Below are positions 2,543 through 36,009 of a DNA stretch of 64,000 nucleotides, in pieces; positions within the stretch are counted from its first letter, which is position 1; each line of letters starts with the position of its first letter. Under the pieces are notes generated by a model that saw nothing but the letters and a program-made list of their open reading frames with translations, had not been told where the DNA came from and did no database searches. A program made the position numbers and the translations under genes. The DNA is from Candidatus Omnitrophota bacterium (GTDB lineage Bacteria; Ratteibacteria; UBA8468; B48-G9; JAFGKM01): NCBI GenBank assembly GCA_023819375.1, contig JAMWDI010000001.1, positions 107,685-171,684 of the forward strand, written 5' to 3'.

Positions 2543-3277
2543 TTATTCTATGTCTTTCCCTAAAATTCCATTTTTTGTTAAATTTATATCTGGATATCCA
2601 TCATTTGCTGGTAAAATTTCTTTTGCTTTTCTAAATTCAACATGACCATCAACAAATAAATAATTTCTACTTCCTTCCCAACTCCACCATCCATTATTCC
2701 CACCTGTGTGATTATCAAGCCATTCTGCAATTATTATTTTTTTGGTAGGATATGCAACCTGTGAAATTTTTTGACCTACTGTAGGAAAAATTTTATTTTT
2801 ATCATATGTATAACTTTTGTCATCCATCTGGTTAATCTGTTCTGGAGAGTGATAAAAACTCATTGAATATCCATATGAAGTAGATTCCCATTTAGTTGGT
2901 GCAGTTTTATCAGAAGGACAGTGAAAAATATCTTTTGGTCTTGAAAATCTCTTTTTAATTTTGTCATAAGAATATGGATTTATATTTACAAAATAAGGGC
3001 CTATAAGAATTCTCCATCCACGTCCCATCCATAGCCAGTAACCTTCAGGAAATGGATCTTGATATGCAGGGAAAAAACCTTCATAATCATCCGTATACAT
3101 TGAAAACGCAATATATATCTGTTTTAAATTATTCATACATACTGCCTGTCTTGCCCTTTCTCTTGCTTTACTTAACGCAGGCAAAATTAAACTTGATAAA
3201 ATTGATACTATCATAACTACTACTAATAATTCAATTAAAACAAAACCATTACTTTTTATTTTTCTTTCTATAGTCAT
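2543..3277 (-). CDS. Prepilin-type N-terminal cleavage/methylation domain protein with DUF1559-like C-terminal region
   Basis: 244 aa. Short basic leader then G-FVLIELLVVVMIVSILSSLILP (class III signal). C-terminal NYLFVDGHVEF resembles the DUF1559 signature. Overlaps iscU by 29 nt. Confidence 0.65.
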   Translation of the reverse strand: MTIERKIKSNGFVLIELLVVVMIVSILSSLILPALSKARERARQAVCMNNLKQIYIAFSMYTDDYEGFFPAYQDPFPEGYWLWMGRGWRILIGPYFVNINPYSYDKIKKRFSRPKDIFHCPSDKTAPTKWESTSYGYSMSFYHSPEQINQMDDKSYTYDKNKIFPTVGQKISQVAYPTKKIIIAEWLDNHTGGNNGWWSWEGSRNYLFVDGHVEFRKAKEILPANDGYPDINLTKNGILGKDIE

Positions 3278-22006: not shown

Positions 22007-23389
22007 CTAACAATCTTCAAAAGTAAAACCTCTTTTGAAAATTTTTAAAGTTTTCTTTACGACTTCGCCATCATAAAGTATATTAGAATTATTTTTTATT
22101 TCTTCCAATGCTCTTTCCAGTAAAAGTTTTGGTCTATAAGGTCTATGAGAACTCATTGCCTCAACAACATCTGCAACAGACAGAATTCTTGATTCCAAAA
22201 TAATCTCTTCACCCTTCAATCCAAACGGATATCCACTACCATTTAATCTTTCATGATGTTGAATAATAATCTTAGCGATATCCCATGGAAATTCTATATT
22301 TTTAACGATATTAGCACCATATTCAGGATGCATTTTTATAAAATCCCATTCAATATTATTTAATTTACCAGGTTTGGCAAGAATATCTGTTGGGATATAA
22401 ATTTTTCCTATATCATGTAACAAAGAAACAATCTTCATTCCTTCAATCAAACTCCCTGAAAATCCTAATTCTTTTGCAATTTCTACTGACAATTTTGCCA
22501 CTCTTTTTTGATGATTAAAAGTATATGGATCCCTTTGTGTTAACGTTTCAGACAAAGCCATCACTGCTTGATTTAACATCCTTTTTGTACTATTTATAGC
22601 CTCCCTCAAATTTTCAATCATCATTTTCCTTTCGGTAACATCTCTAAAACATAATAGAATACCTTCTTCATTAATAAAATTAATTTTTTTCCCTATTGTT
22701 TCTATAAAAAATCTTGCTCCTTTACTATCTCTTATTTCATGTTCTATAAAATAACCACTTTTATTTTTATTTACAAGTTTCAGATTCTGCTCAAATTCTT
22801 CTTTATTTATAATAAAATCAAAAAGATTTTTTCCGATAAAGTTTTCAACTTTATCATACCCAAATAAATTTGCTCCTATAAAATTTGAAAAAAGAACCCA
22901 GCCTTCTTTATCAATAACGACTATTCCATCAAGAAGTGTTTCTGTTAAAATCTTATATTTCTCTTCAGATTCTTTTATTTTCAAAAAAGAAACTTTTTCC
23001 TCTGTAATATCTCTTACTATTGCTACTCTTAAAGTTTTATCTTTATATTTAATATTCTTAACTTTAACCTTAAGAATAATTTCCAAGCCATCCTTTCTGG
23101 TACATCTTGTCTCAAATTCGCCTTCCTTTTCTTCTTTTAATATTTCCAACCAAAAATTTTTTTCACTTTCACTACATAAATCCCATATTTTTTTCCCAAT
23201 TATCTCATTTTTCTCATATCCAAAAATTTCTGCATATTTTTCATTGCAATATATAATTTCTCCTCTATAATTAATACTGAACCCCTCTCCAATCATCAAA
23301 CATATATTTTTCAAAATTTCATTATTTAAAAACCCCTTCTCTATTTCTTTTCTCAATATTTCTAACTCATCTTTATTATTCTTTTTCAT
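22007..23389 (-). CDS. PAS-domain sensor with HD-GYP domain (putative c-di-GMP phosphodiesterase)
   Basis: 460 aa. Two PAS-like regions, C-terminal HD domain (LLHDIGK) and HHERLNGSGYP HD-GYP signature. Confidence 0.8.
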   Translation of the reverse strand: MKKNNKDELEILRKEIEKGFLNNEILKNICLMIGEGFSINYRGEIIYCNEKYAEIFGYEKNEIIGKKIWDLCSESEKNFWLEILKEEKEGEFETRCTRKDGLEIILKVKVKNIKYKDKTLRVAIVRDITEEKVSFLKIKESEEKYKILTETLLDGIVVIDKEGWVLFSNFIGANLFGYDKVENFIGKNLFDFIINKEEFEQNLKLVNKNKSGYFIEHEIRDSKGARFFIETIGKKINFINEEGILLCFRDVTERKMMIENLREAINSTKRMLNQAVMALSETLTQRDPYTFNHQKRVAKLSVEIAKELGFSGSLIEGMKIVSLLHDIGKIYIPTDILAKPGKLNNIEWDFIKMHPEYGANIVKNIEFPWDIAKIIIQHHERLNGSGYPFGLKGEEIILESRILSVADVVEAMSSHRPYRPKLLLERALEEIKNNSNILYDGEVVKKTLKIFKRGFTFEDC

Positions 23390-25212: not shown

Positions 25213-26880
25213 ATGGAAAGAAAAGAATTAGGACAGATTTTACTTGAAAAGGGTTTAATTACGCTTGAACAATTAAATGAAGCACTTGAATTACAAAATG
25301 AAACAAAAAAATTTCTGGGAGAAATACTTATTGAAAAAGGTTATATAAAAAAAGAAGATATCTGGCAAGCATTAACTGAACAAAAAAAAGCAGATTCTGT
25401 GTCTCTATCAAAACTAAAAGGTTTAAAGCCAGAAATTGTAAAAATTATAGATGAAAATATAGCAAGAAGGTTTATTTGTATTCCAATAGCAAAAGAAGAT
25501 GATATTTTGGTAGTTGCAATGAAAGATCCAGCCGATATAGTTGCAATAGATACTTTAAGAAGACTAACAGGATATAAAATTAAAGTAGTTAAAGGTGATG
25601 AAAAAGAAATAATTGAGTTTTTAGATAAATTTTTCTCTAGTTTTGACACTTTTCCAGAAACAATTTCAGAACTTGAAGAAATTTCAGAAGAAAAAGAAGA
25701 ATTAGACGTAGATCAACTTAAAGTTGCTGCTGAAGATGCACCTGTGATTAAATTTGTCAATTCTTTATTTGCAAATGCTATTGAAAAAAGAGCCACGGAT
25801 ATTCATCTTGAACCAGGTGAAAGAAATGTTTATATAAGATTCAGAATAGACGGTGTCCTTTATAATTTTACTTCACCTCCAAAAAGTTCATATCCTGCAA
25901 TTGTAACAAGAATTAAAATTTTATCAAATCTTGATATTGGAGAAAGAAGATTACCACAGGATGGAAGATTTAAGATAAAATTAAGAGAAAAAGAAGTTGA
26001 CGTAAGAGTTTCAACTCTACCTACTATTTATGGGGAAAAGGTAGTTTTAAGATTATTAGATAAAGAAAAACTTGTTTTAGATTTAGAAATGCTTGGATTT
26101 GAAAAAGAAGAATTAGAAAAATTCAAAAAAGCATTGAAAAGACCATATGGAATGATAATAGTAACAGGACCAACTGGAAGTGGGAAAACAACAACTTTGT
26201 ATTCTGGATTGAGTTTTATAAACACCCCTGAAAAAAATATAATTACAATTGAAGATCCTGTTGAATATCAACTTGAAGGAATAAATCAGGTTCAGGTTAA
26301 ACCTAAAATAGGATTAACATTTGCAAATGTATTAAGACATATTTTAAGACAGGACCCAGATGTAATTATGGTTGGCGAAATAAGAGATTTAGAAACTGCT
26401 CAAATAGCAATTCAAGCCTCTTTAACTGGACATCTTGTTATAACTACTTTACATACAAATGATACTGTATCTACAATTTCTAGACTTTATTATATGGGCG
26501 TAGAACCATATCTTATAGCAGACGCAGTGACTATTGTTATTTCACAAAGATTGGTAAGAAAAATTTGTAGTGAGTGCAAAATAATTGATAAGAAAGATAC
26601 AGAAACACTTAAAAATTTAGGATATAAAGAATTTATTGCATATAGAGGGAAAGGATGCTCTTTTTGTAATTACACAGGGTATTATGGAAGAATAGGAATT
26701 TTTGAAGTTTTAGAATTTACAGAAGGGATAAGAGAAATGATTCTTAATAAAAAAAGTGATGACGAAATACGGGATTATGCTATAAAACTTGGCATGAAAA
26801 CTTTAAAAGAATCTGCTATAAAAAAGGTCATTGATGGAATTACATCTCTTCCTGAAGCAATGACGGTAACAATTATATGA
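25213..26880 (+). CDS. pilB: Type IV pilus assembly ATPase PilB (GspE family)
   Basis: 555 aa. N-terminal T2SE_N domain, Walker A GPTGSGKTT, Asp and His boxes, C-terminal CxxC...CxxC tetracysteine. Confidence 0.9.
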   Translation: MERKELGQILLEKGLITLEQLNEALELQNETKKFLGEILIEKGYIKKEDIWQALTEQKKADSVSLSKLKGLKPEIVKIIDENIARRFICIPIAKEDDILVVAMKDPADIVAIDTLRRLTGYKIKVVKGDEKEIIEFLDKFFSSFDTFPETISELEEISEEKEELDVDQLKVAAEDAPVIKFVNSLFANAIEKRATDIHLEPGERNVYIRFRIDGVLYNFTSPPKSSYPAIVTRIKILSNLDIGERRLPQDGRFKIKLREKEVDVRVSTLPTIYGEKVVLRLLDKEKLVLDLEMLGFEKEELEKFKKALKRPYGMIIVTGPTGSGKTTTLYSGLSFINTPEKNIITIEDPVEYQLEGINQVQVKPKIGLTFANVLRHILRQDPDVIMVGEIRDLETAQIAIQASLTGHLVITTLHTNDTVSTISRLYYMGVEPYLIADAVTIVISQRLVRKICSECKIIDKKDTETLKNLGYKEFIAYRGKGCSFCNYTGYYGRIGIFEVLEFTEGIREMILNKKSDDEIRDYAIKLGMKTLKESAIKKVIDGITSLPEAMTVTII

Positions 26881-27947
26881 GCATTATAAATATCAATGAT
26901 ATTCTTAAATTCGCTGTTGAAAAAAAAGCATCAGATATTCATATTCTTGCAAAGTTAAGACCTCACATAAGAATAAATGGAGAATTGCAACCAACTCCCT
27001 TTCCAGTTTTATCAAATGAAGAATGTAAAAACCTTGTTTATTCTATTTTAAATGAGGAGCAAATAAAAATATTTGAAAAAACAAAAGAACTTGATTTTTC
27101 TTATGGAATAGAAGGTATTGGGAGATTTAGAATAAATTTGCATTACCAGAGAGGAACTATAGGAATAGCAATAAGACCGATAAAGGATACAATTCCAACT
27201 TTTGAAGAACTTGGGCTTCCTTCCGATGTTATAATAAAAATGCTATCAAATCCTTATGGATTGATTCTAATTTGTGGACCAACAGGAAGTGGCAAGTCAA
27301 CTACTCTTGCCTCAATGATAGAATATTTAAACGAAACAAAACCACTTCACATAATTACAATTGAAGATCCCATAGAATATCTTTTTAAATACAAAAAATC
27401 TATAGTAGAACAAAGAGAACTCGGACAGGACACATATTCCTTTGCAGAGGCATTAAAAAGAGTTTTAAGGCAAGATCCAGATGTTGTTTTAATTGGAGAA
27501 ATGAGAGATAAAGAAACAATTGAATCTGCTTTGAGAATAGCAGAAACAGGACATCTCGTTCTTTCTACCTTACACACAGGAGAAGTTGTTCAAGCAATGG
27601 GAAGAATTGTAAATGTTTTTCCGGGTGAGCAACAATTAACAATAAGAACACAACTTTCACTTGTGCTAATAGGTGTAATTGTTCAACAATTAATTCCGCG
27701 GAAAGATGGAAAAGGCAGAGTTCTTGCAACTGAAATTATGGTTGTAACACCAGCAATTAGGAGTTTAATCAGGGAAGGGAATTTTGCTCAGATTTATTCA
27801 CAAATTCAACTTGGAGGAGAATATGGAATGAAAACAATGAATTCTTCTTTAATTTCACTTTATAAAAAGGGTTTAATTTCTAAGGAAGACATGATAAGTA
27901 GAAGTCCGAATATAAAAGAGTTAAAATTATTGTTAGGAGAAAAATAA
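26877..27947 (+). CDS. pilT: Type IV pilus retraction ATPase PilT
   Basis: 356 aa. Walker A GPTGSGKST, TIEDPIEY, GEMRD, HLVLSTLHT motifs. ATGA overlap with pilB. Confidence 0.9.
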   Translation: MSIININDILKFAVEKKASDIHILAKLRPHIRINGELQPTPFPVLSNEECKNLVYSILNEEQIKIFEKTKELDFSYGIEGIGRFRINLHYQRGTIGIAIRPIKDTIPTFEELGLPSDVIIKMLSNPYGLILICGPTGSGKSTTLASMIEYLNETKPLHIITIEDPIEYLFKYKKSIVEQRELGQDTYSFAEALKRVLRQDPDVVLIGEMRDKETIESALRIAETGHLVLSTLHTGEVVQAMGRIVNVFPGEQQLTIRTQLSLVLIGVIVQQLIPRKDGKGRVLATEIMVVTPAIRSLIREGNFAQIYSQIQLGGEYGMKTMNSSLISLYKKGLISKEDMISRSPNIKELKLLLGEK

Positions 27948-29173
27948 TGGCAAAATATTTCTATATTGCAAGGGATATTTCAGGTAGTAAGAAAGAAGGT
28001 ATTATTGATGGAGATTCAACAAGTAAAGTTATTTCTCTTTTAAGAAATCAAAATTTATATCCTGTTGAAATAAAATTAATTGGAGAAAAAGGCCTTGATG
28101 AAATTATAACAAAAGAAGAAAAAATAAGTAAAAAAGGAAGGGTATTATTAGGAGAACTAGCAATTTTTTCAAGACAACTTGCCGTTATGCTTGATGCTGG
28201 AGTTCCAATAATAGATGCTATTTCAGACCTTAAAGAGCAAACAAGCAATAGATATTTTGCTTACATTCTTGAGAATATAAAAAAAGATATTCAAACAGGA
28301 AAAAGTTTTTCAAGTGCAATAAGTAAATATCCTAAAATCTTCTCTCCTTTATATGTTGCTCTTGTTAAAAGTGGCGAAGAAAGTGGCAATCTTGTAGGAG
28401 TAATGTCAGAACTTTCATCTTATATAGAAGATCAAATTATTTTATTAAGAAAATTAAGACAGGCTTTAAGTTATCCAACTGTAATTTTTATATTTTTTAT
28501 TGGTGTAATTTCTTTTGTTTTCTTGTTTTTAATACCTAAATTTCAATCAATTTTTTCAAGTTTTGGAGCAAAACTTCCAGGATTAACCTTGTTTATTTTT
28601 AAAATAAGTGGTTTATTTTTAAAGTTTTTACCAATTTTTATTTTTTTCCTTTTCTTTCTTGGAGTTTTTTTATACTTTTATAAAAATACTAAAATTGGAA
28701 GGAAACAAATAGATACTGTCAAATTAAAATTTCCTTTTCTTGGAAAACTTATGTTGAAAATTTCTCTTGCAAGATTTTCAAGTTCGCTTGCCACTCTTCT
28801 TGCAGGAGGAATAAGTATAACAAATGCTCTTGAAATAGTCGCAAAAGTCAGTGGTAACGTTATAATTGAAAATATTATAAACAAAGTAAAAAAAGGAATT
28901 ATTGAAGGAAGGGTATTAAATGAAGAATTAAAAAAACATAAAATTTTCCCATCAATTTTAATCCGAATGGTTCGTGTGGGAGAAGAAACAGGAAAATTGG
29001 AAGAAATGTTGCTCAGAGTTTCAAGATTTTTTAAAGACGAGGTTGACGCTACTATTAATATTCTTACCACCATAATTGAACCAATTTTAATAATAGGACT
29101 TGGTATTGTTGTAGGTATTGTGGTTCTTGCAATTTACTTGCCTATATTTAAACTTGCAGGAACTTTAAGATAA
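27947..29173 (+). CDS. pilC: Type IV pilus inner-membrane platform protein PilC (GspF family)
   Basis: 408 aa. Duplicated GspF domains, three TM segments, conserved EETG motif. Confidence 0.85.
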   Translation: MAKYFYIARDISGSKKEGIIDGDSTSKVISLLRNQNLYPVEIKLIGEKGLDEIITKEEKISKKGRVLLGELAIFSRQLAVMLDAGVPIIDAISDLKEQTSNRYFAYILENIKKDIQTGKSFSSAISKYPKIFSPLYVALVKSGEESGNLVGVMSELSSYIEDQIILLRKLRQALSYPTVIFIFFIGVISFVFLFLIPKFQSIFSSFGAKLPGLTLFIFKISGLFLKFLPIFIFFLFFLGVFLYFYKNTKIGRKQIDTVKLKFPFLGKLMLKISLARFSSSLATLLAGGISITNALEIVAKVSGNVIIENIINKVKKGIIEGRVLNEELKKHKIFPSILIRMVRVGEETGKLEEMLLRVSRFFKDEVDATINILTTIIEPILIIGLGIVVGIVVLAIYLPIFKLAGTLR

Positions 29174-29182
29174 GTGTATAAT
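29154..29182 (+). promoter_or_regulatory. Putative promoter for the pilin genes (TTGCAG, 17 nt, TATAAT)
   Basis: TTGCAG at 29154-29159 inside the pilC 3' end, TATAAT at 29177-29182, AGGAGGTG Shine-Dalgarno at 29201-29208 before the ATG at 29214. Confidence 0.4.
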
Positions 29183-29213
29183 AAAAATATAAAAGAAGAA
29201 AGGAGGTGAAAGA

Positions 29214-29588
29214 ATGAAAAAAAATAAAAAGAAAGGTTTTACTTTGATTGAATTGATGACAGTGGTAATTATTGTTGGAATTTTAGCGTCAGTTGCTGTT
29301 CCTCTTTATAGAGGACAAGTCAAAAGAGCAATGGCAGCAGAAGGAGCAGCATTACTTGGTTCTGTAAGAACTGCTGAAAGAGTCTATTATGCTGAACATG
29401 GAAAATATACAGATGATAAAACAAAACTGGGGATAGATACAACTGGAAACAAATATTTTAAAGATTATACGATTACACTTACAGGTGGAGGCACTGGATT
29501 TATCGCAACAACAACTGGAGAAGGAGATGCTGCAGGAATTACTGTATCCATTGACCAGGATGGAAATTTAACTTATTCTGGAATTTAA
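29214..29588 (+). CDS. pilA: Type IV major pilin (copy 1)
   Basis: 124 aa. Leader MKKNKKKG then FTLIELMTVVIIVGILA (class III signal, Glu at +5); small Gly/Thr-rich C-terminal domain. Confidence 0.85.
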   Translation: MKKNKKKGFTLIELMTVVIIVGILASVAVPLYRGQVKRAMAAEGAALLGSVRTAERVYYAEHGKYTDDKTKLGIDTTGNKYFKDYTITLTGGGTGFIATTTGEGDAAGITVSIDQDGNLTYSGI

Positions 29589-29608
29589 ATTAAAGGGAGG
29601 GACAAAAA

Positions 29609-29983
29609 ATGAAAAAAAACAAAAAGAAAGGTTTTACTTTAATTGAGTTGATGACAGTGGTAATTATTGTTGGAATTCTTGCTGCTATTGCTGTTCCTCT
29701 TTATAGAAGCAATGTCAAAAGAGCAATGGCAGCAGAAGGAGCAGCATTACTTGGTTCTGTAAGAACTGCTGAAAGAGTCTATTATGCTGAACATGGAAAA
29801 TATACAGATGATAAAACAAAACTGGCAGTAGATACAAGTGGAAACAAATATTTTAAAGATTATACGATTACACTTACAGGTGGAGGCACTGGATTTGTCG
29901 CAACAACAACTGGAGAAGGAGATGCTGCAGGAATTACTGTATCCATTGACCAGGATGGAAATTTAACTTATTCTGGAATTTAG
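29609..29983 (+). CDS. pilA: Type IV major pilin (copy 2, tandem paralogue)
   Basis: 124 aa, same architecture as copy 1, own AGGGAGGG Shine-Dalgarno, TAG stop instead of TAA. Confidence 0.85.
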   Translation: MKKNKKKGFTLIELMTVVIIVGILAAIAVPLYRSNVKRAMAAEGAALLGSVRTAERVYYAEHGKYTDDKTKLAVDTSGNKYFKDYTITLTGGGTGFVATTTGEGDAAGITVSIDQDGNLTYSGI

Positions 29984-29993
29984 AAATAAAAAT

Positions 29994-30911
29994 ATGATTT
30001 TAAAAACATGTATTGATTTTAATGAGAAATTTATTAAGATCATTGAAGGTTTTGAAAAAAAATCAAATTTATATATAACAAATATTGGAAAAATTGAAAG
30101 CCCTATTGAAGATCTAAAAAAAATAACAAGTGAAGATGTTGAAATTTTAGGGAATTTTTTAATAGATTATTTCAAAAAAAATAAATTTAAAGGGAAATTT
30201 GGAATATTTACAGTAAATGATGTTGATACAATTTATCATTATTTTGAATTACCTAATCTACCCGAAAATGAAATTGAAAATGCAATAAAATATGAAGGTG
30301 TTCAGTTAATACCAGATTTTATTGAAAATTATGAATATGATTATATTTCCTTTCATATAAACAATAAAAGAAATATTACACTTATTGCCTACCCTAAAAA
30401 TAAAGTTGATTTATACTGTCAAATATTAACAAAAGTAAAGTTGAAACCAATTATAATGGATGTTGCAGGAATTGCACTTTTAAATAGTTTTTTATATTTC
30501 AATCAAACTAAAGATATTGTTTGTTTTCTCAACTTTGGTTTTTCAATTACAAATTGTGTTATTTATTTAAAAGATAAATTTCTGTTCCTCAGAGATATTC
30601 CTGTTGGATTAAAAAACTTAAAAGATAAAGAGTTAATAGAGGAACAGATAAATGAGTTAAGCGAAGAAATAAATATTTCTATAAAATATTTCCAGAATAA
30701 AGTTGGTATTCCTGTTAAAAAAATTTATCTTACAGGATTGGAAAACCAAATTCCTGAAATTAAAGAAAAAATTGAAAGAAATTTAGAACTTCTATGTGAA
30801 TATTATAATCCATTTTTTTATCTTCCAGAAAACGCAATACTTTCTGAGATAAAAAAAGAAGGATCATTTTATTCTACGTGTTTTGGATTATTAACACGAA
30901 AAATAATATGA
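29994..30911 (+). CDS. pilM: Type IV pilus assembly protein PilM-like (actin-fold)
   Basis: 305 aa, position and sequence pattern consistent with PilM; ATGA overlap with the following gene. Confidence 0.6.
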   Translation: MILKTCIDFNEKFIKIIEGFEKKSNLYITNIGKIESPIEDLKKITSEDVEILGNFLIDYFKKNKFKGKFGIFTVNDVDTIYHYFELPNLPENEIENAIKYEGVQLIPDFIENYEYDYISFHINNKRNITLIAYPKNKVDLYCQILTKVKLKPIIMDVAGIALLNSFLYFNQTKDIVCFLNFGFSITNCVIYLKDKFLFLRDIPVGLKNLKDKELIEEQINELSEEINISIKYFQNKVGIPVKKIYLTGLENQIPEIKEKIERNLELLCEYYNPFFYLPENAILSEIKKEGSFYSTCFGLLTRKII

Positions 30912-31498
30912 TTGAAATAAATATTTTGAAAAAGAGATGGGAAAAATATAGAAAAAAATTTTTAATTGTTAAAATAGTTATTTATTATTTTGCAGGTTTA
31001 ATTTTAATTTTTTTCTTATGTTCGGTCATATTTTTTTCAAATAAATTTATAATAAATGGCATTAAAAAAGAAATTAAAACTCTCGAAAACAAAATAGCGG
31101 CAGAAAAAAATCTCATTGAAAACATAAAAGAAATTAATGCAAAATTACAGACTCTTTGTAAAAAATGCTCTTTATATGAAGATGAATATAAAAATAGGTT
31201 ATTATGGAGTAAAAATTTAGCGGTAATTTCTGAATCAGTACCATCTGGTATGTGGATAAGTAAACTTTCCTACCAAAGGGCATTCTCTGAAAGCGAAAAG
31301 AATATTACAATTATTGTTGAAGGCTTTATTTCTCCTTATTATATCAAACCAGAAAAAGGTTGTTTAATTTTTATCAATAATTTAAAAGCAAATGGAAAGA
31401 ATCTTTTTGACAAAGTATTACTTAGTGAAATAACAAAAGGATTAAAAGAAGATAATGAGGTTTATTATTTTAAATTTGAAATTAAGGTAAAAAAATGA
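30908..31498 (+). CDS. pilN: Type IV pilus assembly protein PilN-like
   Basis: Start placed at ATG 30908 (MIEINILKKR), overlapping the pilM stop. Single N-terminal TM helix then coiled-coil/periplasmic domain. Confidence 0.5.
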   Translation: MIEINILKKRWEKYRKKFLIVKIVIYYFAGLILIFFLCSVIFFSNKFIINGIKKEIKTLENKIAAEKNLIENIKEINAKLQTLCKKCSLYEDEYKNRLLWSKNLAVISESVPSGMWISKLSYQRAFSESEKNITIIVEGFISPYYIKPEKGCLIFINNLKANGKNLFDKVLLSEITKGLKEDNEVYYFKFEIKVKK

Positions 31499-32025
31499 AA
31501 GGATCACCAACTTTTATTAAAAAATGGGTTTTATGGATAATTTTAAGTTATGTTTTTTTTATAAGCCTATTTTTGGTTTTTGTTTTTATTCCTCAAAGAA
31601 ATCAAATTTTCAAATATAAAACCGAGAAAAATTTACTTGAATATAATTATTTAAAATTAAAAAATAATCCACAATTTTTACGATCAATAAAAGATTTAGT
31701 TGAAATTGCAGAAAATAAAATTTACAATTTTGAGTGGTTTACTTTTTATGACGATCCCAATATTGCTCTATATGATTATTTAGAAAATCTATCCTCACAA
31801 GCAGGAATTGAAATTATTTCCATAAAAGGCATTCCAGATAAAAATGAGTTATATTATCTCTGGGAAGTAAAATTACAAGGAGATTTCAAAAATTTTGTCT
31901 CTTTTGTTTATCTTATTGAAACTGGAAAAAAATATTTGAAAATTGAAGAAATAGAAATTATTTCAGGAGAAAAAGGCGAAAGTTTTTATAATTTAAAACT
32001 TGCAGGGCTGAGAGGAATAAAATAA
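31495..32025 (+). CDS. pilO: Type IV pilus assembly protein PilO-like
   Basis: 176 aa, single N-terminal TM helix, ATGA overlap with pilN, conserved position in the pilMNOPQ order. Confidence 0.5.
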   Translation: MKGSPTFIKKWVLWIILSYVFFISLFLVFVFIPQRNQIFKYKTEKNLLEYNYLKLKNNPQFLRSIKDLVEIAENKIYNFEWFTFYDDPNIALYDYLENLSSQAGIEIISIKGIPDKNELYYLWEVKLQGDFKNFVSFVYLIETGKKYLKIEEIEIISGEKGESFYNLKLAGLRGIK

Positions 32026-32029
32026 AAAA

Positions 32030-32539
32030 ATGGAGAGAAAAAAACTAACTTTACTTGTTTTAACTATAGTTTTAATACTTCTTTGGGCATGGCAATTAAA
32101 ACCAAAAAAGAAGAAAATAAATATTGAACCTATAATTGAAGAAAAAGAAATTATTGCTGGAATTAATTTAAGAGAAATAGAAGAAAATTTTTCAGAAATA
32201 AAGAAAAAAATAGTTGAAATTGAAAATATTAATAAAGCCAACATTGGAAAGATTACAATTCAAAAAAATCCATTGAAACCCTGGATTTTAAGAAAAGAAT
32301 CTCTAACAAAAGAGGAGAAAGAACCTGAAAAACCCAATTTTAAAATATCTGGAATTGTTCAAGGTAGCAAAAAATCTTATGTAATAATTGATAATGAAGT
32401 AAAAGAAGAAGGAGAAACAATTGGAAATTTTATAATTTTTAAAATCTACCCCGAAAAAGTTATTTTGAAAGATATGACTGGAAATTTTTTTACCTTAAAT
32501 TTTGAATTTGAACAAGGAGGAAACAATGAAAAACAGTAA
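32030..32539 (+). CDS. PilP-like pilus assembly protein
   Basis: 169 aa, N-terminal hydrophobic anchor, C-terminal beta-rich region (FKISGIVQGSKKSYVIIDNE). Positioned before the secretin. Confidence 0.4.
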   Translation: MERKKLTLLVLTIVLILLWAWQLKPKKKKINIEPIIEEKEIIAGINLREIEENFSEIKKKIVEIENINKANIGKITIQKNPLKPWILRKESLTKEEKEPEKPNFKISGIVQGSKKSYVIIDNEVKEEGETIGNFIIFKIYPEKVILKDMTGNFFTLNFEFEQGGNNEKQ

Positions 32540-33848
32540 GAAATTAACCCTTTTTATTCTTTTTTTATTGATAGGAATCCTTTGTTATTGTGAAGAAAAA
32601 TTAACAATTACTTTTTATCAAACAAAACTTGCTCATGTTTTACAGATATTGAGTAAAAAAACAGGTATAAAAATAATAACAAGTAGTGAATTAGGAGAAA
32701 AACCAATAAGTGCATATCTGGAAAATGTAACAGGAGAAGAAGCAATTGATTCTATATTAAAAGCAAATGGATTATATAAAGAAAAACTTCCAGATAGTGA
32801 TGTTTATATAGTTAAGGAATTTAAAGAAACGCCAAAATTAATATCTGAAGTTATATTTTTACAATATTCAAAAGCAGAAGATCTCGGAAAAGTTTTGACA
32901 CCACTGTTAAGTAAAAATGGGAAAATAATAATTGATACAAGAACAAATAGTTTAACAATTCAAGATACAGAAGAAAATTTGAATGATTTGAAAAGAGTTA
33001 TAAGTTTACTTGACAGAAGTATTCCCTGTGTCCAGATTGAAGCGGTTTTAGTTGAATTGACAGAAGACGGGCTTAAAGATCTTGGAATTAAATGGAATGT
33101 TGAAGCCACTTTGACAGGAGGGGCAAAAGATGTAACTTTTCCATGGATGGGACCTTCTTTAGAACATGAAATTGTGAATCCAAGACAAGGCACAATAACT
33201 GGACAAGGAGCTGTCGTTTCTACTGGACCTCAATTTATTCTTGGTACTTTATCTTTTCAAGCACTTACTGCTACTTTAAAATTACTTGAGGTTAAAGGAG
33301 AGGCAAACATTCTTGCAAATCCAAGAGTGACGACTTTAAATGATACACCTGCAACAATAAAAATAACAAAAAATATGGCAGTTGCTGAAAAAGTCATTTA
33401 CACATATGCAACAGCAGGAACAATGGCTCCTACTACAAAAGAACCAATTTTTGCTGAAGTAGGTGTGACATTAATTGCAACACCTCATGTAAATGAAAAA
33501 GGAGATATAATTTTAGAAGTTGAACCAACAGTTTCTTCAGCAGAAAGATCGCCATTTTTTGCTGAAGCAGTTGACACAAATATAAGAACTGCAAAAACAA
33601 AAGTTAAAGTAAAAGATGGAGAAACAATTGTAATAGGAGGACTTTTAAGAACAGAAAAGACCAAAAACAGCACAAAAGTTCCAATCCTTGGGGATATTTT
33701 TCCTTTCCTTTTTAAAAACAAAACACAAACAAATAAAAAAACAGATCTTGTAATATTCTTAACTCCAAAAATAATAACGGAAAAAGAGTTAAAAGAAATA
33801 GTGGAAAAAGAGAAACAAAGATTTGAAGAGAAAGATGAAAAAAAATAG
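32526..33848 (+). CDS. pilQ: Type IV pilus secretin PilQ
   Basis: Start placed at ATG 32526 (MKNSKK) with GGAGG upstream. Secretin C-domain motifs (GETIVIGGL, VPILGDIFPFLF, LVIFLTPKII). Confidence 0.85.
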   Translation: MKNSKKLTLFILFLLIGILCYCEEKLTITFYQTKLAHVLQILSKKTGIKIITSSELGEKPISAYLENVTGEEAIDSILKANGLYKEKLPDSDVYIVKEFKETPKLISEVIFLQYSKAEDLGKVLTPLLSKNGKIIIDTRTNSLTIQDTEENLNDLKRVISLLDRSIPCVQIEAVLVELTEDGLKDLGIKWNVEATLTGGAKDVTFPWMGPSLEHEIVNPRQGTITGQGAVVSTGPQFILGTLSFQALTATLKLLEVKGEANILANPRVTTLNDTPATIKITKNMAVAEKVIYTYATAGTMAPTTKEPIFAEVGVTLIATPHVNEKGDIILEVEPTVSSAERSPFFAEAVDTNIRTAKTKVKVKDGETIVIGGLLRTEKTKNSTKVPILGDIFPFLFKNKTQTNKKTDLVIFLTPKIITEKELKEIVEKEKQRFEEKDEKK

Positions 33849-34227
33849 TGGATATTCACTTGTTGAAATTTTAGTTTCAATTTTAATTTTAACAATAGGA
33901 ATTTTTGGAACCCTTTATTATTTTTTTTACAGTCAAACAAATTTAAACTTAGAAAGGCACAGAAGAACAGCATTGCAAATTGCTCATTCAAGAATTGAAT
34001 TCCTTAGAACTGTAAATTATAATAATCTTATGGATTATGTTGAAAATGGGGTAGAAGTTGATATAGATGAAATTAAAGGAAGAAGATTTACAATAATTGA
34101 AGATATTAATGATCCTGAAGATGCAGATACTAATCCTGATTATAAAAAAATAACAGTTAAAGTTGTCTGGTATGAAAATAAAAGAAATAATGAAGTAGTT
34201 TTACGAACTTTAATAGCGCCATGGTAA
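33823..34227 (+). CDS. Minor pilin / pseudopilin (prepilin-type N-terminal methylation domain)
   Basis: 134 aa with G-YSLVEILVSILILTIGIFG class III signal. Confidence 0.6.
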   Translation: MKRKMKKNSGYSLVEILVSILILTIGIFGTLYYFFYSQTNLNLERHRRTALQIAHSRIEFLRTVNYNNLMDYVENGVEVDIDEIKGRRFTIIEDINDPEDADTNPDYKKITVKVVWYENKRNNEVVLRTLIAPW

Positions 34228-34520: not shown

Positions 34521-35009
34521 TTGAAAAAAAGTTATTTATTTTTAACTGAAATATTATTACTTACTTTTATACTTGCAGGATGTGAATGTGGTCCTGGAAT
34601 ACCAGAAGAACCAATTGATAGACCTGAACCAGAATTACCACCACCTTCTCCACCTACTCCACCACCTTCTACTACTCAAGATGAATATTTCCAACTTGAA
34701 GGGAATAATCTTGTTTATTTTGATGGAAAAAATAAATATTATTTAATAAAAGGAAAAGTTGAAAGTGTAAAATTTGAAAAAGTAAAAGGAGATGGGAATT
34801 CTTATTATATAAGTGTAAATTTAAAACTAAAGGATGGACAAATAATAACCAATCTGGATTCAATAATTGCCTTAAGGAACATAAACAGAACTGTAAATTC
34901 GGGAACATCTTCAGGTGGTTCAGTTGATCCAGGTGGAGGTACTTCTCCACCACCTAATTTTGAACCAATAGAACCACCAGAAGTTGGCCCAGTAATACCA
35001 CCATATTAA
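34521..35009 (+). CDS. Lipoprotein with proline-rich linker (pilus-locus associated)
   Basis: 162 aa, TTG start. Lipobox LAGC, Pro-rich tracts (PPPSPPTPPPS; C-terminal PPPNFEPIEPPEVGPVIPP). Confidence 0.5.
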   Translation: MKKSYLFLTEILLLTFILAGCECGPGIPEEPIDRPEPELPPPSPPTPPPSTTQDEYFQLEGNNLVYFDGKNKYYLIKGKVESVKFEKVKGDGNSYYISVNLKLKDGQIITNLDSIIALRNINRTVNSGTSSGGSVDPGGGTSPPPNFEPIEPPEVGPVIPPY

Positions 35010-35010
35010 A

Positions 35011-36009
35011 ATGAAAAAAGGGATTGCTTTAATTTCAGTAGTAATGATTGTTATGATACTTACATTAATGGGTCTTGCTTTTTTGAATATGTCTGGTCTT
35101 GAAAATATATTATCTAAAAGACAAAATTTTTATTTAAAAGCCCTTAATATTGCAGAAGCAGGACTTGAAAGAGCCTTGTGGAAATTAACGAAACAGCCTA
35201 ATTGGAGAAGTGGATGGAATAACATTTCTTTTGATGATGGGTATTATAAAGTAACTCTATCAGATCAATCAGATGGAACAATCTTAATAATTTCTACTGG
35301 ATATTGTAAAAATATAAGTAAGACAGTAAAAGCAACTGTAAGAGTTTCGTCTTCCTCATCTTCTCCTTCGATATCTTTTACATTAGGAACATCTTTGGGT
35401 AATCTTGGAGATTTTCCAGGATCTTATGGAGACATAGGACAAAGTTTTACAACTGGCTCATCTCAAATAAAGGTTGCAAGAGTGGAAATGCAAATAAAAA
35501 AGGACAACCCAAACGTAAGTGATATTTATATGACTATAAGAAGTGGAAGCACAGTTGGTCAAATTTTAGGAACAAGCAATATAATACCAAATTCTCAAAT
35601 TCCTTCTGGAAATGCTTTATGGATTTCTTTTAATTTTGATCCCCCTGTTTTACTTCAACCAAATACAAAATATTATTTAAGATTATCTTCAATTCCGCCT
35701 TCTACAAATCCATATTCAGGAGCACAAGGTAAGATACACCTTGTCTATGCAAATCCTTCATATAGAAGAGTTGGAGGAGGACATACGAGTAGTGATATAG
35801 GAGATGGATTACCAAGTTATGATGAACCTGGTTTTGTTGAAGTAAGTCCGTATGTATATGGTGAAGCATATAGATATATAGGAAGAAACAATAATCCATC
35901 ATATCCAGGTGAAGTTTTAAATCATGATTTTAATTTCAGGATTTTTAGTACTTCAAGTGGAAGCGTAAACATAATAAACTGGACTGAAGAACCATACAAT
36001 AATTTTTAA
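35011..36009 (+). CDS. PilX-like minor pilin / pilus-associated protein
   Basis: 332 aa. N-terminal PilX_N-like hydrophobic segment (GIALISVVMIVMILTLMGLAFL), Ser-rich tract. Confidence 0.5.
   Translation: MKKGIALISVVMIVMILTLMGLAFLNMSGLENILSKRQNFYLKALNIAEAGLERALWKLTKQPNWRSGWNNISFDDGYYKVTLSDQSDGTILIISTGYCKNISKTVKATVRVSSSSSSPSISFTLGTSLGNLGDFPGSYGDIGQSFTTGSSQIKVARVEMQIKKDNPNVSDIYMTIRSGSTVGQILGTSNIIPNSQIPSGNALWISFNFDPPVLLQPNTKYYLRLSSIPPSTNPYSGAQGKIHLVYANPSYRRVGGGHTSSDIGDGLPSYDEPGFVEVSPYVYGEAYRYIGRNNNPSYPGEVLNHDFNFRIFSTSSGSVNIINWTEEPYNNF

Follow-up and report, generated by a model that had tools for sequence, protein, structure and literature searches.

A type IV pilus is usually regarded as a polymer of a single major pilin. 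In the pilE/pilS system of Neisseria, the silent cassettes are 5'-truncated and lack promoters, a G4-forming element is present, and the pilin head is subject to diversifying selection. Paralogues of another kind, represented by tufA/tufB and the rRNA operons, predate speciation and are more similar within genomes because of recurrent gene conversion, and in concerted evolution of the tufA/tufB type the islands that resist homogenization mark functional differences. Omnitrophota is a poorly known uncultured phylum that is thought to include ultra-small, host-dependent cells. The PilE1 and PilE2 pilins of S. sanguinis, which are 78% identical, form one heteropolymeric pilus with a stochastic arrangement (PMC6497953, PMC10628169), and this pilus, the one heteropolymer that is well studied, is termed unusual by its authors. 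Of the adjacent pilin paralogues PilA1 and PilA2 of Legionella pneumophila, only PilA2 is detected in pili (PMC13170364). In the literature searched, no work was found that deals directly with tandem pilin paralogues evolving in concert or converting one another, and a survey of Omnitrophota mentions T4aP genes, but not pilin pairs.

The locus analysed here lies in a 64-kb stretch of DNA, which is called the window as a whole. The host genome has a GC content of 27.8% and is Omnitrophota/Ratteibacteria-like, as judged from the depositor labels of near-identical MAG proteins (Candidatus Omnitrophota/Omnitrophica) and of close relatives (Ratteibacteria). Two tandem genes encoding 124-aa pilins, pil1 and pil2, had been predicted at positions 29214-29983 of the window, and both open reading frames are present there. 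They are located between pilC and pilM in a cluster with the order pilB-pilT-pilC-pilA-pilA-pilMNO-pilQ. The features of the locus are listed in Table 1.

Table 1. Features of the pil locus, in positions of the window
Feature	Position	Strand	Basis
pilB-like assembly ATPase, MshEN N-terminal domain	25213-26880	+	Pfam T2SSE 2.4e-143, MshEN 2.3e-14
pilT-like retraction ATPase, 356 aa	26877-27947	+	Pfam T2SSE 5.7e-49
pilC platform protein	27947-29173	+	Pfam T2SSF 8.2e-58, two repeats
Candidate promoter of the pilin pair, TTGCAG-17 nt-TATAAT	29154-29182	+	Read by eye; overlaps the pilC stop codon
pil1, Ser18 type, complete prepilin gene, 124 aa, stop TAA	29214-29588	+	ORF, Pfam, AlphaFold2 fold
Spacer between pil1 and pil2, ATTAAAGGGAGGGACAAAAA, 20 nt	29589-29608	+	Sequence; same junction in the independent contig L003
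pil2, Ala18 type, complete prepilin gene, 124 aa, stop TAG	29609-29983	+	ORF, Pfam
pilM	29994-30911	+	Pfam PilM_2 1.3e-18
pilN, pilO and pilP positions, three small ORFs	30878-31498, 31495-32025, 32030-32539	+	Assigned by position only
pilQ secretin	32502-33848	+	Pfam Secretin 5e-37, Secretin_N 3.5e-14
Minor-pilin-like gene	33823-34227	+	Pfam N_methyl; prepilin motif at 33850
Gene among the downstream minor-pilin-like genes	34521-35009	+	No Pfam match
Minor-pilin-like gene	35011-36009	+	Pfam PilX_N

The ORFs at the pilN, pilO and pilP positions have no significant Pfam match, and the gene order around them is conserved in relatives. A prepilin peptidase (PilD) is not recognized among the ORFs of the pil cluster and downstream of it that were scanned with Pfam. 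Each of pil1 and pil2 has its own start codon, leader and Shine-Dalgarno sequence, and the ribosome-binding sites are strong; GGGAGGG in the spacer is the Shine-Dalgarno-like site for pil2. The stop codon of pil2 lies 10 nt upstream of pilM. The two genes are probably co-transcribed, because the spacer contains no terminator, and a scan of positions 28900-30300 detects no terminator-like site. The TTGCAG and TATAAT sequences upstream of pil1 may possibly act as the promoter of the pair. They are absent from the consensus scan, the -35 sequence matches at only 3/6 positions, and TATAAT (29177-29182) is not a true extended -10. The promoter scan gives fewer promoter-like sites than are obtained with shuffled sequence. 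As a general observation, promoter matches of this kind are common in a genome of 28% GC.

Both proteins have a class III signal peptide, in which the leader MKKNKKKG, identical in the two copies, is followed by FTLIELM, with G-1, F1, E5, G14 and P22. Gly14 and Pro22 are present in 117/117 homologues. Both proteins match the Pfam N_methyl family above the cutoff (7.8e-9 for pil1 and 3.1e-9 for pil2), and the Pilin family is matched as well. The AlphaFold2 model of pil1 (pLDDT 88.8) has a pilin fold with a helix at residues 11-62 and strands at residues 85-90, 95-101, 110-114 and 119-122, which gives the predicted lollipop arrangement of a long α1 helix on a four-stranded antiparallel β-sheet. 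The best Foldseek match of this model is N. gonorrhoeae PilE (5vxx/1ay2, E 6e-5), followed by Thermus PilA4 (6xxd), and a PDB profile search gives matches to M. xanthus PilA, Neisseria PilE and Geobacter major pilins. PilB, PilT, PilC, PilM/N/O and PilQ, which constitute the T4aP machine, are encoded alongside, in an order that is conserved in relatives. Neither copy contains a cysteine, and neither has a C-terminal disulfide-bonded D-region, which is typical of many, but not all, T4a major pilins; since cysteine-free major pilins exist, this does not speak against the assignment. These results suggest that pil1 and pil2 encode pilins of the type IVa major-pilin type.

Two other assignments were considered. 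The Pfam ComP_DUS family is matched at 29.2 and 30.7 bits, barely above the cutoff of 27.3, probably because the general pilin fold is recognized, since Pilin and Pilin_GH match the same region. In ComP, a disulfide-stabilised DD-region forms the DNA-binding surface. Assignment to a ComP/DUS-receptor minor pilin is rejected on account of the borderline profile match, the absence of cysteines, and a gene position and matches that are those of a major pilin. The idea of a conductive e-pilin has been raised for Omnitrophota (PMC10066038). The aromatic density is 9.5% when His is counted, and stretches free of aromatic residues reach 26 residues at most. These values are borderline for an e-pilin, and the protein has the full length and the head domain of a pilin, so that this reading is not favoured.

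The pil1 and pil2 proteins are identical at 116 of 124 residues (93.5%), and the eight residues at which they differ, 26, 27, 34, 35, 73, 74, 77 and 97, are exactly those originally predicted. pil1 has Ser at codon 26 (mature residue 18), followed in mature numbering by Val19 and Gly26-Gln27; pil2 has, in codon numbering, Ala-Ile at 26-27, Ser-Asn at 34-35, Ala-Val at 73-74, Ser77 and Val97. The predicted near identity of the DNA over about 375 bp is likewise found, with 18 differences in 372 coding nucleotides besides the stop codon (TAA vs TAG). Codons 4, 11, 13, 24 and 25, all at the 5' end, differ synonymously only. The differences are significantly clustered: nucleotides 1-105 hold 13 of the 18 (binomial p = 1.4e-4), and the stretches without a difference reach up to 112 nt (permutation p = 0.024). 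The unit of the repeat measures 395 bp, and the homology ends upstream at the start codons and downstream at the stop codons. A third pilin copy or a partial cassette is not detected in the 64-kb window by blastn or tblastn.

The tandem arrangement is real and not a product of assembly. An independent 522-bp ENA contig (L003) extends from the end of pilC through pil1 and the 20-nt spacer, a unique sequence that follows the pil1 stop codon, and ends 22 nt into pil2, where the pil2-specific C at nt 12 is present. Four Logan assemblies, made from other sequencing runs, begin exactly 41 nt upstream of pilM, at the first 31-mer that holds the G of the pil2 TAG stop codon. This start point indicates that both the TAA and the TAG continuations exist in those reads, since a break at TAA/TAG is expected for a de Bruijn branch between two continuations. 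The NCBI MAG GCA_023819425.1 is broken at both repeat edges, and many independent relatives, from unrelated metagenomes, carry the same pair in this position. The possibility raised with the original prediction, that the duplication is an assembly artefact, either because two strain alleles of a single-copy pilin were joined in tandem or because a repeat was mis-resolved, is contradicted by the junction in L003, the TAG-specific breaks and the pairs of the relatives, and can be given next to no weight. It would agree with a Logan contig (L001/L164), in which a single hybrid gene, composed of the pil1 body, the pil2 stop codon and the downstream flank, lies between pilC and pilM. This contig is best read as an assembly collapse, because the pil2 gene of the strain has ATC at codon 97, so that a 3'-terminal stretch of at least 145 nt is the same in both copies; strains that are 99.8% identical differ at codon 97 of pil2 and codon 73 of pil1. 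It would also agree with the absence of a full-length exact pil2 sequence, as a called gene, from the database records, in which the exact pil1 protein is present in one NCBI MAG and in Logan/ENA contigs. However, the NCBI protein MCM8771614.1 corresponds to residues 40-124 of pil2; this C-terminal part lies on a 367,852-bp NCBI contig and is annotated from Met40 only.

Tandem pilins are encoded between pilC and pilM in at least 11 relatives. A total of 29 Ala18/Ser18 pairs was found. The family contributes 26 of these, and its pairs extend to pilin identities as low as about 55-60%. Mature residue 18, which is located in the N-terminal α-helix between Gly14 and Pro22, differs in 26/26 family pairs, one copy having Ser and the other Ala, and neither an Ala/Ala nor a Ser/Ser pair occurs among the family members examined. 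Mature residue 49 differs in 22 of these pairs, usually with Ile in the Ser18 copy and Val in the Ala18 copy. Among the 120 best database matches, 64 have Ala18 and 43 have Ser18. All six close genomes use TCA for the Ser, and synonymous states at codons 13 and 26 are common to each paralogue type, which suggests that the Ser and Ala types reflect shared ancestry rather than convergence. Five of the eight residues that differ in the window (26, 27, 35, 74 and 77) match paralogue-specific states elsewhere, including relatives (L008 and L089) of only about 75% identity; the genomes compared are phylogenetically non-independent, and this paralogue-type signal rests on few sites. The original prediction was correct in regarding differences in the N-terminal helix as unusual for antigenic variation, for they form a conserved paralogue signature. 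The Ala18 gene comes first in 22 pairs and the Ser18 gene in 7, and one relative (L101) has three copies in the order Ala-Ser-Ala. In six relatives, only one pilin gene lies between pilC and pilM, which is either real or collapsed; if these single-pilin loci are real, the pair would not be obligatory. The predicted change in copy number is plausible in view of the three-copy relative and the single-copy contigs, although the single copies could also result from assembly collapse.

The phylogenetic signal is not uniform along the genes. In quartets that contain the window pair, 29-93 sites group the copies by genome and 1-5 by paralogue type, and the latter are located only at codons 13, 26, 27, 35, 74 and 77. 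In the quartet with L004, sites that group by genome at codons 14, 18, 22 and 31 flank the type-grouping sites at codons 26-27. Among the close genomes L004, L084, L086 and L087, grouping by type is favoured in the 5' half (9-12 sites vs 0-6) and grouping by genome in the 3' half (2-18 sites vs 0-1), a contrast that is significant by Fisher's test (p = 1.5e-5 and 7e-7). In bootstrapped neighbour-joining trees, the Ser-type copies are monophyletic for codons 1-62 (81%), and the two copies of one genome are sisters for codons 63-124 (76-100%). In L084, the two copies have 3' halves of 100% identity. For 95% of 406 genome pairs, the heads are more alike within a genome than between copies of the same type from the two genomes. 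The dS value between pil1 and pil2 is 0.09 and that between pilins of different genomes 0.5-0.65, and the pS value between pil1 and pil2 is 0.27 in codons 4-25 and 0.015 in codons 36-124. These results indicate that the genes outside the signature, above all the part encoding the exposed head, have been repeatedly homogenised within each genome by gene conversion. The paralogues are evidently under concerted evolution of this kind: the duplication is older than speciation, the copies resemble each other within each genome, and the phylogeny is mosaic. The copies look recently duplicated in every genome, probably because gene conversion keeps homogenising them. Selection apparently holds the pair heterotypic and keeps the helix signature, because the Ser/Ala site survives although homogenization reaches to within a few codons of it on either side. 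The dS values of the pilins between genomes are lower than those of the neighbouring genes (0.7-1.9). This difference could be caused by codon bias or by exchange of pilin genes between lineages, and the latter would complicate the orthology argument.

A recent tandem duplication in the window lineage, with the eight differences as later mutations and without long-term maintenance of two types, would explain that the copies are 95% identical in DNA, that they are sisters in both gene halves, and that both have the lineage-specific residues K2, K5, K7, E103 and S112. It is nevertheless very unlikely, because at least 26 relatives have the same pair, with the same Ser/Ala (TCA/GCN) distinction, at this locus, because residues 26, 27, 35, 74 and 77 match paralogue-specific states in other genomes, and because the mosaic pS values are unexpected from a single date of duplication. 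For the window lineage taken by itself, it is conceivable that the gene was recently re-duplicated and that two or three codons then converged, since the copies of the window and of L006 group by genome in both gene halves. The high identity had been attributed originally to recent duplication or ongoing gene conversion; the grouping of the 5' half by paralogue and of the 3' half by genome argues for the latter, and the occurrence of the pair at so many related loci argues against the former. If the two copies served only to double the output, the Ser/Ala difference being neutral and persisting because conversion tracts seldom reach it, then the strong ribosome-binding sites of both genes, their apparent co-transcription, the homogenization, which is expected for dosage repeats, and the possible existence of single-copy relatives would all be explained. 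Such a neutral difference would, however, be erased in at least some lineages, and homotypic pairs are lacking, sites only 4-5 codons away on both sides of the Ser/Ala site are homogenised, and residue 49 (Ile/Val) co-varies with residue 18, all of which makes pure dosage improbable. A division of labour, in which one copy is the major pilin of the fibre and the other serves in a different fibre or acts outside a fibre, for example in priming, in regulation or as an antagonist of a pilus function, is rather unlikely for the window, because near-identical heads in its clade fit one shared lattice better than separate roles, and because the leader peptides are identical. It has precedents in L. 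pneumophila, in which PilA2 is on the surface and the adjacent, 72%-identical PilA1 is not (PMC13170364), and in Thermus thermophilus, which makes two different pili from PilA4 and PilA5, both of which are among the structure matches. It also fits the distant pairs L046 and L075, in which the heads of the Ala18 and Ser18 pilins are only 16-24% identical.

The proposal that recombination between the copies generates pilin variants must be weighed against the selection on the pilins. The dN/dS values of the pilins between genomes are 0.09-0.155, those of PilT are 0.08-0.11, and the pilins are 86-93% identical between genomes in which PilM/N/O are 52-60% identical. Both pilins are therefore evidently under strong purifying selection, and a hypervariable, positively selected surface region is not seen in these comparisons. 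It runs against usual experience that a pilin should be better conserved than most components of the machine that assembles it. The dN/dS value between the two copies is 0.42 overall and about 1.3 in codons 36-124, but this estimate is based on 5-6 substitutions and is not readable as positive selection. A system in which inter-copy recombination makes antigenic or phase variants, as in Neisseria pilE/pilS, could use near-identical tandem repeats as substrates; conversion between the copies clearly occurs, and the differences between the 99.8%-identical strains at pil2 codon 97 and pil1 codon 73 would fit as well. However, this conversion homogenises rather than diversifies, each copy is a complete, translatable gene that has a ribosome-binding site of its own, and the pilin head varies little from genome to genome. 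Promoterless 5'-truncated silent cassettes are not detected in the 64-kb window by blastn or tblastn, and a G4 motif (G3+N1-7 x4) is absent from both strands of the whole window. The eight differences, mostly conservative and partly located in a buried helix, would permit only a trivial repertoire. The predicted recombination-driven variation is thus not borne out, and it is extremely unlikely that the pair is a variation system.

The pair is apparently neither a fresh duplication nor an immune-evasion device. Probably, pil1 and pil2 are paralogous type IVa major-pilin genes that form an old and conserved pair, which is homogenised by gene conversion and kept heterotypic, and their products may be co-assembled. 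Of the functions considered, co-expression as two major subunits of a single pilus would be the most likely. They would be the Ser18 and Ala18 members of an ancient pair that spans an Omnitrophota/Ratteibacteria-like clade. In the window lineage, conversion has apparently swept nearly the whole gene, sparing the signature codons 26, 27 and 35, the older paralogue-specific codons 74 and 77, and private changes at codons 34, 73 and 97. The tandem repeat would permit unequal crossing-over, by which three-copy arrays, single hybrid copies and both gene orders may arise. With a chance that falls slightly short of even, a prepilin peptidase cuts both proteins and a single machine polymerises them into one mixed, heteropolymeric pilus. 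The outer surface of such a pilus would be uniform, since conversion keeps the heads alike, and its core would contain two helix variants that may tune packing, stability or extension and retraction.

It is a more speculative and rather doubtful proposal that Ser18/Ala18 represents an obligate two-subunit pilus design, with a uniform surface and a selected asymmetry in α1, across a large part of Omnitrophota and relatives. If it is correct, the one-residue polar/apolar asymmetry, together with Ile/Val49, would fall in the α1 segment that melts in assembled pili, and the fibre would have a property that neither homopolymer has, such as high-temperature stability, extensibility or a particular retraction behaviour. 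The design would be the reverse of that of the sole heteropolymeric T4P characterised so far, in which the core is identical and the surface a mosaic. As judged from the genomes compared, the two-pilin arrangement appears to be the rule across many genomes of this phylum, with one Ser18 and one Ala18 copy and never a homotypic pair. It provides a clear case of gene conversion with an island of divergence that is apparently selected, and a precise hypothesis that α1-core residues affect pilus assembly. Near-identical tandem genes should not be read as recent duplications, and the pilin copy number of MAGs is probably underestimated, because short-read metagenome assemblies routinely break or collapse such pairs.

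The S. sanguinis locus is similar to the locus of the window in that one pil locus contains two complete, highly similar major-pilin genes, with 78% identity there and 93.5% here. In S. sanguinis, stochastic co-polymerization of two major pilins by one machine is proven experimentally (PMC6497953, PMC10628169); for the pair of the window, it is a prediction. α1 is identical in both S. sanguinis pilins, and an 8-aa loop and the C-terminal tail, both on the surface, differ. The pair of the window shows the reverse, because its head is homogenised and its conserved difference is located in α1 (Ser18/Ala18). S. sanguinis also differs in being a monoderm without a secretin, and the available portions of the two papers report no evidence of gene conversion between PilE1 and PilE2. 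L. pneumophila resembles the host of the window in having an adjacent major-pilin-like pair in a diderm T4aP system, and this pair is conserved genus-wide. However, PilA1 and PilA2 are only 72% identical, with differences along the whole protein, and neither concerted evolution nor a single-residue signature is described for them (PMC13170364).

Thermus thermophilus has PilA4 for a wide pilus and PilA5 for a narrow one (PDB 6xxd, 6xxe and 8qqj). These are likewise small, cysteine-free pilins, from a thermophile, with two major pilins for one machinery, and PilA4 is the third-best structural match of pil1; but their sequences are dissimilar, their genes are no adjacent duplicates, and each builds a filament of its own. 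Neisseria shares with the window the non-reciprocal recombination between pilin copies, and the predicted fold is closest to that of gonococcal PilE. Unlike the Neisseria copies, both copies of the window are complete and look expressed, no G4 motif accompanies them, and the head, which evolves under purifying selection, is made uniform by conversion. Finally, the locus differs from tufA/tufB and the rRNA operons, which are dispersed housekeeping genes, in that the unit is a 395-bp tandem repeat, the product is the subunit of a surface fibre, and the homogenization is polar with a 3' bias.

At the sequence level, pil1 and pil2 are two intact, adjacent major-pilin-type genes within a complete type IVa pilus cluster, which is assigned by Pfam search. 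The features are listed in the table below.

Features of the type IVa pilus cluster in the window
Feature	Position	Strand	Remark
pilB	25213-26880	+	Pfam; with MshEN domain
pilT	26877-27947		Pfam
pilC	27947-29173		Pfam
pil1	29214-29588	+	complete ORF, 124 codons
pil2	29609-29983	+	complete ORF, 124 codons
pilM	29994-30911		Pfam
three small ORFs	between pilM and pilQ		placed as pilN/O/P
pilQ (secretin)	32502-33848		Pfam
minor-pilin-like gene	33823-34227		N_methyl
minor-pilin-like gene	35011-36009		PilX_N

The products of pil1 and pil2 are 93.5% identical and differ at residues 26 (S/A), 27 (V/I), 34 (G/S), 35 (Q/N), 73 (G/A), 74 (I/V), 77 (T/S) and 97 (I/V); the ORFs confirm the coordinates, the identity and every one of the eight residues of the original prediction. 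The genes differ at 18 of 372 coding positions and end with TAA (pil1) and TAG (pil2). The first 105 nt contain thirteen of these differences (binomial p = 1.4e-4), all five codon differences that are only synonymous lie within codons 4-25, pS is 0.27 for codons 1-35 and 0.015 for codons 36-124, and the longest stretch without a difference measures 112 nt (permutation p = 0.024). The similarity is bounded by the start and stop codons, the upstream regions are unlike, and each gene has a Shine-Dalgarno-like sequence, AAGGAGGTGA for pil1 and GGGAGGG for pil2. No third pilin copy or fragment is found in the 64-kb window. The G+C content of the window is 27.8%, and the nearest database proteins are from MAGs labelled by depositors as Candidatus Omnitrophota/Omnitrophica, with close relatives labelled Ratteibacteria.

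Both proteins have a class III signal peptide (MKKNKKKG, followed by FTLIELM), Glu5, Gly14 and Pro22, and no cysteine. AlphaFold2 predicts a canonical pilin (pLDDT 88.8) with a helix at 11-62, a short helix at 69-72 and four strands. The closest structures to the predicted fold are gonococcal PilE and Thermus PilA4, and the top sequence-profile matches are major pilins of M. xanthus, Geobacter and Neisseria. The Pfam match to ComP_DUS is borderline, and assignment as a DNA receptor is not adopted on this match. The alpha1 helix of the predicted fold contains residues 26/27 (mature 18/19) and 34/35 (mature 26/27); residues 73/74/77 fall in the alpha-beta loop, and strand 2 contains residue 97. 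In published type IVa filament structures, the Gly14-Pro22 stretch is unfolded in the core of the assembled fibre, and residue 18 of the mature protein would presumably fall in this stretch.

Several other features accompany the cluster. A gene for a PAS-PAS-HD_5/HD (HD-GYP-like) protein (22007-23389, minus strand) is located two genes upstream, and this arrangement with an MshEN-bearing pilB is also kept at the homologous loci L001, L002 and L004. The HD-GYP-like gene and the MshEN domain of PilB suggest cyclic-di-GMP control of pilus assembly. An ORF of the DUF5618 family (135 aa) is located between pilC and the pilin pair at L004 (5218-5625), and similar pilC-to-pilin gaps of 400-500 nt are present in L084, L087, L090 and L007; the gap in the window is 40 nt, without this ORF. 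The 244-aa protein encoded at 2543-3277 (minus strand) combines a prepilin-type motif at its N-terminus (weak N_methyl match) with a DUF1559/SBP_bac_10 domain, and the first ~70 nt of its gene are 74% identical to the 5' end of the pilin gene. This protein is pseudopilin-like, with kinship to the pilin pair limited to the leader/helix region. DUF1559-type pseudopilin-like proteins are abundant in genomes of the PVC group.

The possibility that the duplication is an assembly artefact that collapses to one copy is contradicted by four agreeing lines of evidence. An independent ENA contig of 522 bp (L003) spans the end of pilC, pil1, the 20-nt spacer and the start of pil2, where nt 12 is the C specific to pil2. 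Other sequencing runs contribute four Logan contigs that start precisely 41 nt upstream of pilM, at the first 31-mer that contains the G of the pil2 TAG stop; a de Bruijn graph of k = 31 must branch there if the reads contain both TAA-spacer-pil2 and TAG-pilM. In the NCBI MAG GCA_023819425.1, one contig stops at the pil1 stop and another begins 138 nt before pilM. Finally, MCM8771614.1 (85 aa, NCBI) is identical to pil2 residues 40-124. This 'hypothetical protein' (NC922_00850; 367,852-bp contig), which matches 29726-29983, starts at internal Met40, either because the start is misannotated or because the contig differs upstream; it is the sole database record of pil2, the full-length 124-aa protein being absent from the collections searched.

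An exact look-up of the window PilM yields 11 contigs. In short-read assemblies of the same species (L001/L164, L002, L165 and L166-L169), the pair is collapsed to one hybrid gene or the contig is broken at the repeat edges; this applies to 10 of the 11 contigs. One Logan contig (L001/L164) has a single gene, whose body is that of pil1 and whose stop and downstream flank are those of pil2. The pilM-adjacent copy of this strain has ATC at codon 97, instead of GTC in the window, which indicates that at least the last 145 nt are identical in the two copies of this strain. The simplest reading is that this single gene is an assembly collapse of the pair; a real one-copy recombinant is possible. 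Because the locus collapses or breaks in short-read assemblies, pilin copy number is likely under-reported systematically in MAGs of this group. Strains ~99.8% identical (window versus L001/L002/L003/L165) differ at sites distinguishing the copies: pil1 codon 73 is GGG in the window (29432) and GGA in the other strain, the I97V difference is missing there (GTC at 29897 in the window), and the pil1 leader region has a 1-nt indel. The differences at codons 73 and 97 reflect either a very recent conversion event or new mutation.

The original prediction attributed the high identity to recent duplication or to gene conversion. Recent duplication does not agree with the loci of relatives, which were taken from GTDB species representatives and JGI metagenomes. 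Most close relatives have two tandem pilins between pilC and pilM, and 29 adjacent Ala18/Ser18 pairs are present over all fetched loci, 26 of them within the family. Residue 18 differs in all 26 family pairs and residue 49 in 22 of them (Ser18 copies have Ile there, Ala18 copies Val/Thr); neither Ala/Ala nor Ser/Ser pairs are seen among family members of the fetched loci. Among the best 120 database matches, 64 have Ala18 and 43 have Ser18. The Ser codon is TCA in 6/6 closest genomes, and copies of the same type have common synonymous states at codons 13 and 26, which favors common ancestry over convergence. The window differences at 26, 27, 35, 74 and 77 match paralogue-specific states of other genomes (74 and 77 those of L008 and L089, ~75% identical); those at 34, 73 and 97 are private. 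These results indicate that the Ser18/Ala18 pair is ancient and predates these lineages. L046 (Omnitrophota NC_groundwater_94) and L075 (labelled Planctomycetia) also have adjacent Ala18/Ser18 pilins, but head identity in these pairs is only 16-24%. The Ser/Ala split may long predate the head-homogenised clade, or these pairs may be independent.

Gene conversion, in contrast to recent duplication, is borne out. In quartets of the window pair and a second pair, grouping by genome is seen at 29-93 informative sites and grouping by paralogue type at only 1-5. Among L004, L084, L086 and L087, 9-12 sites group by type and 0-6 by genome in codons 1-62, whereas 0-1 group by type and 2-18 by genome in codons 63-124 (Fisher p = 1.5e-5 and 7e-7 for two genome pairs). 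In bootstrapped NJ trees, the Ser-type copies are monophyletic at 81% for the 5' half, and copies from one genome are sisters at 76-100% for the 3' half; in L084, the two copies have 3' halves of 100% identity. Head identity within a genome exceeds same-type identity between genomes in 95% of 406 genome pairs, and dS is 0.09 between pil1 and pil2 versus 0.5-0.65 across genomes. These patterns show recurrent conversion between the tandem paralogues, most strongly over the 3' part, which codes for the head. For the window as for L006, both gene halves group by genome at 94-100%, and conversion appears to extend over almost the entire gene. By-genome sites at codons 14, 18, 22 and 31 closely flank the type-specific codons 26-27. 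The Ser18/Ala18 (and Ile/Val49) signature persists despite homogenising conversion. Because the Ser/Ala difference is kept in every pair, selection probably acts against homogenisation of residue 18 and keeps the pair heterotypic.

Recombination-driven pilin variation finds no such support. Both copies are complete, neither silent pilin cassettes nor a G4 motif is found in the window, and pilin dN/dS between genomes is 0.09-0.155, comparable to that of PilT (0.08-0.11), indicating strong purifying selection on pil1 and pil2. Thus, gene conversion stands as the part of the earlier interpretation that holds, and recent duplication and antigenic variation do not. When 25213-33848 is compared with L004, L006 and L084, conservation within the cluster is highest for the pilins (86-93% identity to the window, followed by PilT, 83-87%, PilC, 75-82%, and PilM/N/O, 52-60%), and their dS of 0.5-0.65 lies below the 0.7-1.9 of the neighbouring genes. 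The major pilin is usually the most variable pilus component. The high conservation and low dS could stem from codon bias, from lateral exchange of pilin genes or from a binding partner that is itself conserved.

Gene order varies among the 29 pairs, with Ala first in 22 and Ser first in seven, which include the window, L006, L097, L098, L114 and L117. L101 (JGI Ga0247841_10012875) has three tandem pilins, Ala18-Ser18-Ala18, starting at ~2571, 3019 and 3425. Such an array is the expected intermediate if unequal crossing-over alters copy number and is able to reverse the gene order; unequal exchange within the 395-bp repeat would yield this array, both gene orders and the possible forms with one copy.

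The pil1-pil2 spacer is 20 nt without a terminator, and the two genes are therefore probably co-transcribed. Both pilins may be built into the same fibre, whose surface would be uniform and whose core would contain two variants. A situation like that in Legionella, where only one of two adjacent pilin paralogues is piliated (PMC13170364), is the main functional rival. Tandem major-pilin paralogues in a type IVa locus and concerted evolution of duplicates are known already; the literature searched contains no description of their specific combination here, in which the Ser18/Ala18 rule holds across the clade, the head is homogenised and the pilin exceeds its machinery in conservation. The only characterised heteropolymeric type IV pilus, PilE1/PilE2 of S. 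sanguinis, shows that two similar major pilins can co-assemble stochastically; however, PilE1 and PilE2 have an identical alpha1 and differ at the surface, unlike the window pair (PMC6497953, PMC10628169).
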